Shown here piece after piece: positions 58,880 to 63,250 of a DNA stretch of 64,000 bases; within the stretch, counting starts at the first letter, position 1; each line of letters opens with the position of its first letter. Made by a program: the position numbers and the translations under genes. This stretch comes from an uncultured Candidatus Binatia bacterium (GTDB lineage: Bacteria; Desulfobacterota; Binatia; UBA9968; CAXXLF01), in contig OZ244621.1 of NCBI GenBank assembly GCA_965218425.1, positions 2,688,001-2,752,000 of the forward strand, given 5' to 3'. The notes below the pieces were generated by a model that had not been told where the DNA came from, searched no databases, and was given only the letters and a program-made list of their open reading frames with translations.

Positions 58880-60112
58880 ATGCGCGCCCCCGTTCTATTG
58901 ATTCTTCTGGTATTATTCTCGGGTTGTTCGCCCGTTTACGTTATTCGTGCCGCTTATGAGGAGACAAAGATCCTTTGGAGGCGCGAGCCCATCGAAAAGC
59001 TGCTGAAAAACCCTGCGTTGGATACCGAGACTCGAAAAAAATTCGAGCTGGTCCTGGCGGTTCGTGACTATGCCCGTGACAAGCTCAGATTGAGGGTTAA
59101 GGGAAGCTATGCCTCCTATTCCCGCCTGGGTCGACCGGTTCTCTCTTATGTGCTAACTGCGGCCCCTCAGACCAGTCTGGAGCCTTATACCTGGTGGTTC
59201 CCTTTCGTGGGACGGTTGCCCTACAAAGGCTATTTCTCCCAGGCGGAGGCGGAATCCAAGGCCAGAGAATTCCAGCAAAGGGGATATGACACCAGCATCC
59301 GCCCGGTGTCGGCCTTCAGCACCCTGGGCTGGTTCGACGATCCCCTGTTGAAGCATCTCCTGCGGTTGGACAAGGTCGATTTGGCGGAGGTCATCTTTCA
59401 CGAGCTCTTGCACAATACTCTGTTCGTAGCCGGGTCGGTAAATTTCAATGAAAGCCTGGCCAACTTTTTCGGCAACCGCGCGGCAATGGGTTTCTTTCGC
59501 GATCGTTACGGAGGATCGAGCCCCGAGTACTCGCAGGCAGCCGCGGCCTGGGAGCGGGAGCTGGAGTTTTCTGGATTTATCACCCGGGTTGCCGATTCTC
59601 TCGAAGAGCTCTATCAAAAGGACCTGTCGAGAGAAGAAAAACTCCGGCTGCGGGAGGGTATTTTTTCCCGTAGTCGAAAGGAATGGGTCGAACAGGTTGC
59701 CGGCAAGCCGCAACATCAGTACCGGGGGTATGGCGAACGGGAAGTCAACAACGCGACCATGGTTCGATATCTCCTCTATCTCGGCGGTCTGGAACTCTTT
59801 GAGTCGCTGTACGAGGCGCGGGGAAAGGATCTGGTGAAATTGATGGATTCGATCCGGCAATCCATCGAAAGGGGTGAGCCCCCCTTTGAGGCCGTCAGGG
59901 ATCTCGTGCCCCTGTCGAGGCCAGACCCTAAGGGAGAGACGCCGCCGGGCGCCGGTCTGAGTCCGGCGTTCGTTCCCGGAAACAGTAAAGCCAGGCGCCT
60001 TATTCCGCCGGTACCCGACGTATCCGCCGTCCCTCTTTCCACCGCCCCGAAGGCGAGTAGGGGCTCCGTGCCGGCGGCGGTTCATCAAACCTCGCGGGGA
60101 GTCCATGGTTGA
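58880..60112 (+). CDS. Putative zinc aminopeptidase lipoprotein (DUF2265-like)
   Basis: Lipobox FSGC; WWFPFVG, YKGYF, STLGWFDDP, HELLH...NESLA. Confidence 0.85.
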   Translation: MRAPVLLILLVLFSGCSPVYVIRAAYEETKILWRREPIEKLLKNPALDTETRKKFELVLAVRDYARDKLRLRVKGSYASYSRLGRPVLSYVLTAAPQTSLEPYTWWFPFVGRLPYKGYFSQAEAESKAREFQQRGYDTSIRPVSAFSTLGWFDDPLLKHLLRLDKVDLAEVIFHELLHNTLFVAGSVNFNESLANFFGNRAAMGFFRDRYGGSSPEYSQAAAAWERELEFSGFITRVADSLEELYQKDLSREEKLRLREGIFSRSRKEWVEQVAGKPQHQYRGYGEREVNNATMVRYLLYLGGLELFESLYEARGKDLVKLMDSIRQSIERGEPPFEAVRDLVPLSRPDPKGETPPGAGLSPAFVPGNSKARRLIPPVPDVSAVPLSTAPKASRGSVPAAVHQTSRGVHG

Positions 60113-60593
60113 TCATCGGGCCGAATCGGTGAAATTCGCAGCGGACAGAATGCTGGGGAGGCTGGCCAAGTGGCTTCGCATCATAGGCCACGATGTGGCC
60201 TACGGTTCCCATCTGGCGGGCTATGGGTTGGTCCGCACCGCACGGAAAGAAGACCGCTTGATCCTGACCCGCGACCGTGGAATCCGTAAGAAAGGCCCTC
60301 CCGACTATCTGCTCATCGAGAGCACCCGGTTCCGTGAGCAGCTCAGGCAGGTGATCCATGCCTATGGTTTGGATCCTGTAAAGAACGCCTTCACCCGGTG
60401 CGTGGAGTGTAATGACCTCCTCGATCCGATCCCCAAAGAGGCGGTTCAGGAGAAGGTTCCCCCTTACGTTTTCTCAACACAAGAGAGGTTCAGTGTCTGC
60501 CGGCACTGCCAGCGGGTCTACTGGCCCGCCACCCACCTGCACAAGATGCTGGAGGAGTTGAAGAGCCTGAGTGCGGGCCCGCGTGCAATTTAG
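60105..60593 (+). CDS. Mut7-C RNase (PIN-like) domain protein
   Basis: DRMLGRLAKWLR, ILTRDR, RCVECN...CRHCQRVYW..TH. Confidence 0.88.
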   Translation: MVDHRAESVKFAADRMLGRLAKWLRIIGHDVAYGSHLAGYGLVRTARKEDRLILTRDRGIRKKGPPDYLLIESTRFREQLRQVIHAYGLDPVKNAFTRCVECNDLLDPIPKEAVQEKVPPYVFSTQERFSVCRHCQRVYWPATHLHKMLEELKSLSAGPRAI

Positions 60594-60610
60594 CCGAGGT
60601 GTATGGCTGT

Positions 60611-60880
60611 GACCTTTTCTTGTTGCGGCTATTCGCCGTAAGGCGAATTGAAAAATCGGGTGAATTCAGGCAACTCCAAGTCCCAAGCGAAATCGAAGGA
60701 TAGGGGAATCCTGAGCGAAGCCCGCCGAAGGGGAATTTAGTAGGCAGGAACGTGCAGAGACTAGAGGTTGAGGACCCTGCCAATAAAACCTCGCTGGCGT
60801 CCGGCACCCATTTCTCAAATGTTTGAAGAGATATGGGTGATGAGATAGTCCAAGCCCGGTAGAAATATCAGGAGTACTTG
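60611..60880 (+). ncRNA. Group I self-splicing intron (~270 nt, no ORF)
   Basis: IGS GCGGCTAT pairs with upstream ATGGCTGT (U.G at the 5' splice site). P2 TTCGCC-GTAA-GGCGAA; P4 TTCAGG/CCTGAG; R GCAGAGACTAGA; S GAGATAGTCC; P8 ACCCAT/ATGGGT; P9 with GAAA loop; terminal G at 60880. Confidence 0.9.
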
Positions 60881-60921
60881 TAACCACCGTGTCGGGGGTT
60901 CGAGTCCCTCCCGGGGAGCCA
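60881..60921 (+). tRNA. tRNA-Asn(GUU) 3' half (positions 36-76) only
   Basis: T-AA-CCACC-GTGTC-GGGGG-TTCGAGT-CCCTC-CCGGGGA-G-CCA. A72/G73 and the spliced loop CT-GTT-AA indicate Asn. The expected 5' half (TCCCCGG...GGTGG) is not upstream. Confidence 0.85.
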
Positions 60922-60960
60922 TTTTTTCGGGGGCGAACTACAGCGCCTCGATAGTTAACG

Positions 60961-61404: not shown

Positions 61405-61456
61405 TTGACAGTCTATATCTGCGTTTATATACTGCTATATCAATGGTGATATAGCA
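61405..61456 (+). promoter_or_regulatory. Sigma70 promoter and palindromic operator of padR
   Basis: TTGACA(61405)-17 nt-TATACT(61428); perfect inverted repeat TGCTATATCA-ATGG-TGATATAGCA at 61433-61456. Confidence 0.8.
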
Positions 61457-62919: not shown

Positions 62920-63189
62920 TCGCCCACCCGGGCGGCTGCCATTTCGGCGCGCTTCATCTGCCTTGCTGCCGTCATCCCGGTGAAAGCTGGAATCCAGTCC
63001 CTCCACAAAGCTCAGCACACATCTGAAGGCAGTCTTTATCGCGTCCTCTGGGCTTGGGCTTGCTGCGTATTGGATCGCCGGGACGCAATTAATGAGCTAT
63101 TGAATTGCGTCTGGTGCGCTTAGAAGCTCTTTTGAAAGGGGAGCAGTGGCCGTTATGGATCGCCGTAAGGGACAGAGCCAGTGCTCACC

Positions 63190-63250
63190 TGGTATGACAA
63201 GCGGGTCTGTTTCATAGACCTTTTGGATGAACAGTCGGGTCATATGCTTT
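63190..63250 (-). pseudogene. IS91-family transposase C-terminal remnant
   Basis: RLFIQKVYETDPLV resembles the WARLIxKVYExDPLxC motif. Confidence 0.5.

Follow-up and report, generated by a model that had tools for sequence, protein, structure and literature searches.

A complete group I intron joined to a truncated tRNA-Asn gene in a Candidatus Binatia genome: a probable remnant of the original intron-bearing gene

The locus described here is found in a stretch of 64,000 nucleotides, the whole of which is referred to as the window, and all of its features lie on the plus strand. An intact ORF of 162 amino acids (60105-60593), having a Mut7-C domain of a PIN-like RNase (Pfam PF01927, E 8.3e-42), ends with the stop codon TAG (60591-60593), and 17 nt (60594-60610) separate this stop codon from the 5' splice site of a group I intron. 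The last eight codons and the stop codon of Mut7-C are provided by a junction sequence of 36 nt (60568-60603), for which the alignments give no homolog. It is followed by seven nucleotides (TGGCTGT, 60604-60610), being nt 29-35 of tRNA-Asn, with which the homology to the relatives begins and which form both the end of the 5' exon and the 5' strand of the P1 helix of the intron. The intron (60611-60880) is complete, 270 nt long and without an ORF, is inserted between tRNA positions 35 and 36, and is followed by nt 36-76 of tRNA-Asn, including the CCA end (TAACC...GAGCCA, 60881-60921). A G+C-rich hairpin in the acceptor/T-arm remnant, followed by GCCA and TTTTTT (60905-60927), is detected in a pattern scan as a terminator-like site, which is not significant (one site, as compared with a mean of 1.5 in shuffled sequences). 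The promoter scan detects no site upstream of Mut7-C or of the intron (the single site found is at 61405-61433), and the base composition around the locus is uninformative. Among the 13 runs listed for this stretch there is none of RNA.

The intron is matched by the Rfam group I intron model RF00028 at 60601-60872 with 80.7 bits (E 6.5e-19; threshold 50 bits), over all model positions (1-253 of 253), and this is the only match of the model, both in the window and in the genome, which is a single contig of 4.46 Mb. The 5' splice site follows T60610, and the terminal G of the intron is G60880, after which the 3' exon starts with TAACC; these splice sites are the same as those of 12 relatives. 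The P1 helix is formed by ATGGCTGT (60603-60610) and the internal guide sequence GCGGCTAT (60625-60632, the P1 3' strand in alignment A2), with eight pairs, the last of which is U.G, and a P10 helix of three pairs is possible between GTT (60622-60624) and AAC of the 3' exon. The P1 loop has 14 nt, and an ORF for a homing endonuclease is absent. The consensus structure of 13 sequences has 58 pairs, of which 17 show compensatory changes, and the window intron is 87% identical to the intron of a genome of the same genus (G001).

The 41 nt of the 3' half (60881-60921) are 100% identical to C1:4330995-4331035, which are nt 36-76 of the only tRNA-Asn(GUU) of the genome. A complete cloverleaf is not present after removal of the intron, as only nt 29-76 are left, the acceptor and D arms are missing, and three of the five exon-exon pairs of the anticodon stem remain. 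With the 5' exon reduced to 7 nt, no tRNA can therefore be made from the window locus. ARAGORN reports no tRNA in the window, and when it is applied with intron search to the whole genome, the locus stays undetected and several implausible intron calls are made. An earlier reading of the same DNA, made from the sequence only, had proposed that a complete intron core ends in G60880, that P1 is still formed, that a tRNA segment 36-76 with CCA follows, and that of the 5' exon only TGGCTGT is left, with the Mut7-C stop 17 nt before the splice site. Each of these points is confirmed, the core by the match over the full model and by the sequence itself, and the covariance-model search that this reading had suggested gives a score over the threshold.

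This sequence-only reading had also found no other 5' half in the window, and this result can be extended to the genome. In a fuzzy search of the genome in which as many as 6 mismatches were allowed, the 35-nt 5' half is detected only once, within an intact tRNA-Asn gene at 4.33 Mb. When 20-nt end pieces of the 5' half are searched with up to 3 mismatches, only three short near-matches are found genome-wide, two of them overlapping the genes of tRNA-Thr and tRNA-Phe and the third being at C1:3958404, with 2 mismatches in 20. The suggestion that the locus is part of a split tRNA whose 5' half is encoded separately is not in agreement with these searches, as the only 5' half lies inside the intact gene.

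The intact gene (C1:4330995-4331070, minus strand) is the sole tRNA-Asn(GTT) of the genome and has no intron. It is preceded by a duplicate of the Mut7-C gene, the duplicated block being 60076-60567 (plus strand) in the window and C1:4331727-4331235 (minus strand) at 4.33 Mb, with 97.8% identity over 493 nt. This block starts about 30 nt upstream of the start codon of Mut7-C and reaches codon 154. The second Mut7-C is also intact, and the seven differences in the shared part are either synonymous (four) or conservative (three). The order at 4.33 Mb is Mut7-C, a spacer of 164 nt and the intact, intron-free tRNA-Asn, and the two copies are inverted with respect to each other and 1.58 Mb apart. 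When the copies are compared, 192 nt (the 164-nt spacer and tRNA nt 1-28) are seen to be swapped in the window for the 36 nt of 60568-60603, for which no homolog is found in the genome or in the loci of 13 relatives. The ancestral downstream sequence is also lost in the window copy, from the base after CCA.

Homology to G001 is seen both for the spacer at 4.33 Mb and for about 22 nt beyond the tRNA, so that the 4.33 Mb copy goes back to the same ancestral locus; as the intron is present both in G001 and in the window copy, the 4.33 Mb copy has lost it precisely. The 3'-half bases that are common to both copies of this genome differ from those of G001, which points to a duplication within this lineage. 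In G001 (L018:9560-9830, minus strand), the tRNA-Asn 5' end is partially duplicated over 30 nt, and this duplicate and an insert of about 76 nt are located just upstream of the real tRNA-Asn, and the spacer at 4.33 Mb (L004:8072-8235, minus strand) contains a shorter relic of this partial duplication; together these suggest an older rearrangement at the tRNA-Asn locus.

Several routes to the second copy have been considered. On both sides, the 4.33 Mb copy is bordered by unique sequence in which no repeats are found, which argues against transposition. A retro-copy is not supported, as there is no RVT_1 match in the genome and the copy runs at least 22 nt past the CCA, and a simple microhomology deletion, on our own reading of the junction sequences, is unable to remove the intron precisely. 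An inversion with duplicated ends is favored by the inverted orientation of the copies, which straddle the skew maximum at about 3.815 Mb, not symmetrically, and by the finding that the 4.33 Mb copy sits between two blocks which are on different contigs in G001. Against such an inversion, the genes found 6.6-9 kb downstream of the tRNA-Asn in another relative (G002, L020) have their best matches at C1:2879919-2882418, about 130 kb past the remnant, and their orientation is unchanged. It is possible, from these matches, that a large insertion or expansion follows the old tRNA site.

The homology of the window locus to the 4.33 Mb copy and to the relatives stops at 60922, one base past the CCA. 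The next 2.1 kb are specific for this genome and are followed by a multi-copy short repeat (63046-63231 of the window, about 65-185 nt), of which dozens of copies occur here and in G001, G002 and G004. Downstream of the remnant, repeats are densely spaced, also beyond the window (C1:2752000-2764000), and 63046-64428 in window numbering shares 98.6% identity with C1:472095-473478.

Logan contigs from three studies span both junctions of the locus (60567-60611 and 60880-60881). One contig (X4 record 17) covers 59800-60920, from the aminopeptidase gene through the CCA, with one difference; another (X2 record 11) covers 60574-60920 with 0 differences, and a third (X1 record 2) covers 60095-60920. 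This comparison concerns the window locus, and one of the runs may be the sample from which the genome itself was assembled. The X1 contig has all seven Mut7-C variants of the 4.33 Mb type (60231-60512) together with the intron of the window type, either by gene conversion between the paralogs or because the contig is chimeric; the variant at 60231 alone is also seen in X2 and X4. Paralogs can thus be mixed by assemblers or by gene conversion, as this contig illustrates, which is the point in favor of an assembly artefact or a two-strain chimera as the source of the arrangement. Such an origin is extremely improbable, given that the genome is a single 4.46 Mb contig and that one of the bridging contigs runs from the aminopeptidase gene to the CCA with a single difference. 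Because contigs from three studies bridge the junctions, the window arrangement is not misassembled; a misassembly, for which the sequence-only reading had proposed a check at the level of reads, is contradicted by these contigs.

Among 40 relatives, the intron together with the 3' half is matched in three genomes, being one of the same genus (G001), one of the same family (G004) and one of another family (G039), with 78-87% identity; 35 match the 3' half only, and two have no match. In the order, the intron is matched in 16 of 123 genomes when this genome is counted, where two of the matches are of 24-25 nt only and that of G099 is divided between two contig ends. The intron is directly preceded by a normal 35-nt 5' half, TCCCCGG...GGTGGCTGT, in every one of the 12 evaluable relatives of the order (including G101 and G083, which are marked unpublished). 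Scans of collections with an exact 26-nt core as the pattern give 14 loci on genome contigs and 56 metagenome loci, and the 5' half is present in cis at 67 of these 70 loci. At the remaining three, a contig end interrupts the locus, leaving 48, 88 and 342 nt, and the third is of the long form that bears an ORF; the collection loci overlap with the 12 relatives, so that the two sets are not independent. The truncated form is not found elsewhere in the order or collection scans, but only in this genome and in near-identical contigs. The comparison of the junction in related genomes, which the sequence-only reading had called for, thus finds a whole tRNA-Asn gene at the same place.

A long form of the intron, in which about 300 nt are inserted into the P1 loop, occurs at 28 of 67 loci, as judged by spacing. 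The insert of G004 (L008:976-1320, minus strand) encodes an ORF of 114 amino acids with an HNH-like motif (C..CH...H), running into the P1-P3 strands of the ribozyme, and its match to the Pfam HNH family (E 0.0041) is under the cut-off; in G101 a 51-nt remnant of the P1-loop insert is left. One record titled Candidatus Uhrbacteria (CPR; L055) has the same intron in a whole tRNA-Asn gene, near-identical to those of Binatia, and is probably a mis-binned contig. In its default mode, ARAGORN misses the intron-bearing tRNA-Asn in L007, L008, L009 and the window. The program is blind to this intron family, and such genomes therefore appear to be without tRNA-Asn in routine annotation.

The genes upstream of the feature are a YhdP/AsmA-like gene, two ABC exporters, a PF10023 aminopeptidase and Mut7-C, and the synteny with G001, G002 and G039 holds as far as Mut7-C and tRNA-Asn. 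In G002, an intron-free tRNA-Asn is found at the syntenic place, with Mut7-C before it, and Mut7-C is directly upstream of the intron-bearing tRNA-Asn at 51 of 64 evaluable loci (L046-L059, L064-L119). No conserved sequence is found downstream of the tRNA among the relatives. Because of the upstream synteny and the Mut7-C linkage, the window locus is, as judged from gene order, the original site of tRNA-Asn.

The score of the window copy (80.7 bits) is inside the range of RF00028 scores among the relatives (71.9-102 bits), the sister genome G001 having 95 bits. The alignment of 13 sequences shows nine private changes of the window copy at otherwise invariant columns, as compared with 0-3 in the other sequences. 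This is also seen with 54 unique sequences, where the window copy deviates at 9 of the 157 columns that are at least 95% conserved, and the other 53 deviate at 0.43 columns on average (median 0, maximum 3). Two pairs are broken in the window copy (C/U at the end of P4 and C.A in P6), and three or four Watson-Crick pairs are now wobble pairs; the changes in P2 are compensated, as are, judging by our own inspection of alignment A2, those in P5. Helices contain eight of the nine unusual changes, most of them either keep the pair as a wobble or are compensated, and the conserved junctions and the P7 region are unchanged. The guide sequence GCGGCTAT has two changes that are absent from all relatives, A to G and T to A (A2 columns 3 and 7), and one of these, together with an A of the 36-nt filler, extends P1 from six to eight pairs. 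In a relative-rate count, this branch has 15-17 changes and that of G001 has 5-9 (p 0.03-0.22, depending on the outgroup). This pattern fits a ribozyme that would have been under relaxed constraint for a short time; a loss of activity is not proven by the sequence. For a related tRNA intron, Zaug, McEvoy and Cech reportedly found in 1993 that the exon pairing of the anticodon stem is required.

It is probable that the feature is a truncated and redundant remnant of the original intron-bearing tRNA-Asn(GUU) gene of this lineage, and the remnant is most likely decaying. From the computed homologies, the deletion, the duplicate, the whole genes of the relatives and the excess of substitutions, we infer an order of events, together with the transcription, the residual splicing and the functionlessness of the remnant. 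The ancestor would have had, in this order, the two ABC exporters, the PF10023 aminopeptidase, Mut7-C, the spacer, tRNA-Asn (5' half, intron and 3' half) and a terminator. In this genome, the unit that begins about 45 nt upstream of Mut7-C and ends just past the tRNA is present twice. The 4.33 Mb copy, which has the spacer and the 5' half but not the intron, is the only working tRNA-Asn gene, and the window copy would have stayed in place and lost the 192 nt, with the 36 nt in their stead, as well as its downstream sequence. The intron-free duplicate would have made the window copy dispensable. The remnant is probably read through from Mut7-C, and its RNA may still splice itself, because P1, the three-pair P10, the terminal G and the catalytic core persist; the ligated product would not be a tRNA, and no function would be expected of it.

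Against decay, the ribozyme is not visibly broken and the adjacent Mut7-C ORF is intact. The retained piece also ends at two functional borders, the seven nucleotides that form P1 and the CCA end, and this would have to be a coincidence if only decay were at work. On a rival reading, the ribozyme would be a cis-acting element in the 3' UTR of Mut7-C, where self-splicing or cleavage would set the 3' end, the stability or the level of the mRNA, leaving the T-arm-like hairpin and the CCA as the new 3' end. The intact Mut7-C directly upstream, the preserved and even lengthened P1, the unchanged core, the hairpin and T-run next to the CCA and the strongly conserved linkage of Mut7-C and tRNA-Asn (51 of 64 loci) would agree with such a role, which is nevertheless unlikely: the arrangement occurs in one species only, the changes at invariant positions are in excess and include the two broken pairs, the terminator-like site is no more frequent than in shuffled sequences, and the anticodon-stem exon pairs are down to three of five. 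Group I ribozymes are able to trans-splice in engineered settings, and the remnant would be a natural case if its guide sequence were to bind GGCUGU of tRNA-Asn or its precursor, cut after U35 and ligate its own 3' half, thereby renewing or repairing the tRNA. The guide is able to pair with the cis exon and, in the same way, with nt 29-35 of the real tRNA-Asn, and the 3' half does not differ from that of the functional gene. We consider this very unlikely, as the 5' exon in cis, with its eight-pair P1, would outcompete a substrate in trans, the product would be the same as the substrate, with no obvious gain, and the target bases are in a folded and normally modified anticodon arm; moreover, this arrangement is seen in no second lineage (0 of 67 evaluable loci), and the substitution pattern suggests relaxed constraint. 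Taken more generally, a stand-alone module of ribozyme and 3' half, maintained by selection and acting either in trans on tRNA-Asn (after U35) or in cis as a self-processing 3' UTR of Mut7-C, would seem decidedly improbable. Nothing was found in support of the earlier proposal that the ribozyme donates a 3' half to tRNA-Asn, and the normal 5' half at the same place in the relatives, which that reading had itself named as an outcome contrary to it, speaks against a trans-spliced or split tRNA.

Integrases that target tRNA genes typically duplicate the 3' part of the tRNA, and the retained nt 29-76 match the span that is typically duplicated. The locus could then be an att-site fragment that was displaced when an integrase made an insertion into tRNA-Asn, with the crossover in the anticodon arm, and this would also agree with homology stopping right after the CCA, with the 2.1 kb of genome-specific sequence followed by the multi-copy short repeat, and with the downstream genes of G002 being about 130 kb further on here. 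This origin is unlikely, because it is the remnant that has the ancestral upstream genes next to it, and the intact gene that is followed by the ancestral terminator, which is the opposite of what an integration predicts. The upstream Mut7-C is duplicated as well, there are no more than two copies, in inverted orientation and at a distance of 1.58 Mb, direct repeats bounding an element are not found, and none of the five Phage_integrase matches in the genome is located between 2.60 and 3.17 Mb. Of the explanations offered by the sequence-only reading, the leftover of a rearrangement comes closest to the truth, except that it is the intact gene that has been displaced, with the fragment still occupying the ancestral locus; in the sense of an att site it is opposed by the duplicated Mut7-C, by the inverted and distant copies and by the lack of an integrase between 2.60 and 3.17 Mb. 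That reading had also allowed for a full tRNA-Asn with the same intron elsewhere in the genome; a full gene is indeed found, at 4.33 Mb, but the intron is absent from it. The decaying remnant of the original gene is therefore the preferred description of the locus.

The element resembles the known group I introns in the anticodon loop of bacterial tRNA genes, and the truncated copy is a new instance from a single species. A group I intron with an intron-encoded endonuclease was reportedly described by Bonocora and Shub in 2001 for the tRNA-fMet of Synechocystis. The relatives of the window intron are similar in that they carry an endonuclease-like ORF (28 of 67 loci having the long form by spacing), whereas the window copy has no ORF, the host tRNA is a different one and the HNH score of the relatives is under the cut-off. 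Split tRNA genes are said to have been found in Nanoarchaeum (Randau, 2005), and trans-spliced group I introns occur in organelles. Common to these systems and the window locus is a 3' half or exon without a 5' partner in cis, but in those systems the partner is encoded separately, whereas here there is no free 5' half and an intact tRNA-Asn exists. Ordinary tRNA pseudogenes and fragments are likewise partial copies, identical to a functional gene and located beside a breakpoint; unlike them, the remnant bears a complete and apparently foldable ribozyme and is at the ancestral site, and it is the functional gene that has been relocated.

In a preprint (Williams 2020, bioRxiv 10.1101/2020.01.27.920355) the number of known classes of bacterial tRNA group I introns is raised from 4 to 21. 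The introns described there are similar to the window intron, being compact ribozymes of about 240-270 nt in the anticodon loop that have a U at -1 in the U.G pair of P1, end in G and are patchily distributed among relatives, and the window site would be Asn.4Ug in the naming used there. The window copy differs from them in its 5' exon of only 7 nt. Asn is not mentioned in the running text of the preprint, nor in a review of 2014 (PMC3984707), and the searched passages of PMC5733544 and PMC8450103 contain no bacterial tRNA-Asn intron. Among the full-text literature matches listed, none concerns a group I intron in a bacterial tRNA-Asn, as judged by the title and the start of the abstract.

If the main reading is correct, the locus would be an ordinary but instructive relic, as the two products of a tRNA-intron loss are found together in one genome, namely the working gene without the intron and a copy that has kept the intron and lost the exon. 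It would also be a dated snapshot of the decay of a redundant ribozyme, with drift starting at helix positions while the catalytic junctions remain as they were. A warning for annotation is that tRNA finders miss every member of this tRNA-Asn intron family. If instead the module were maintained by selection, it is the seven exon bases of P1, the whole catalytic core and the CCA end that selection would have kept, and the locus would be of much greater importance only if its RNA acts in trans or controls Mut7-C.
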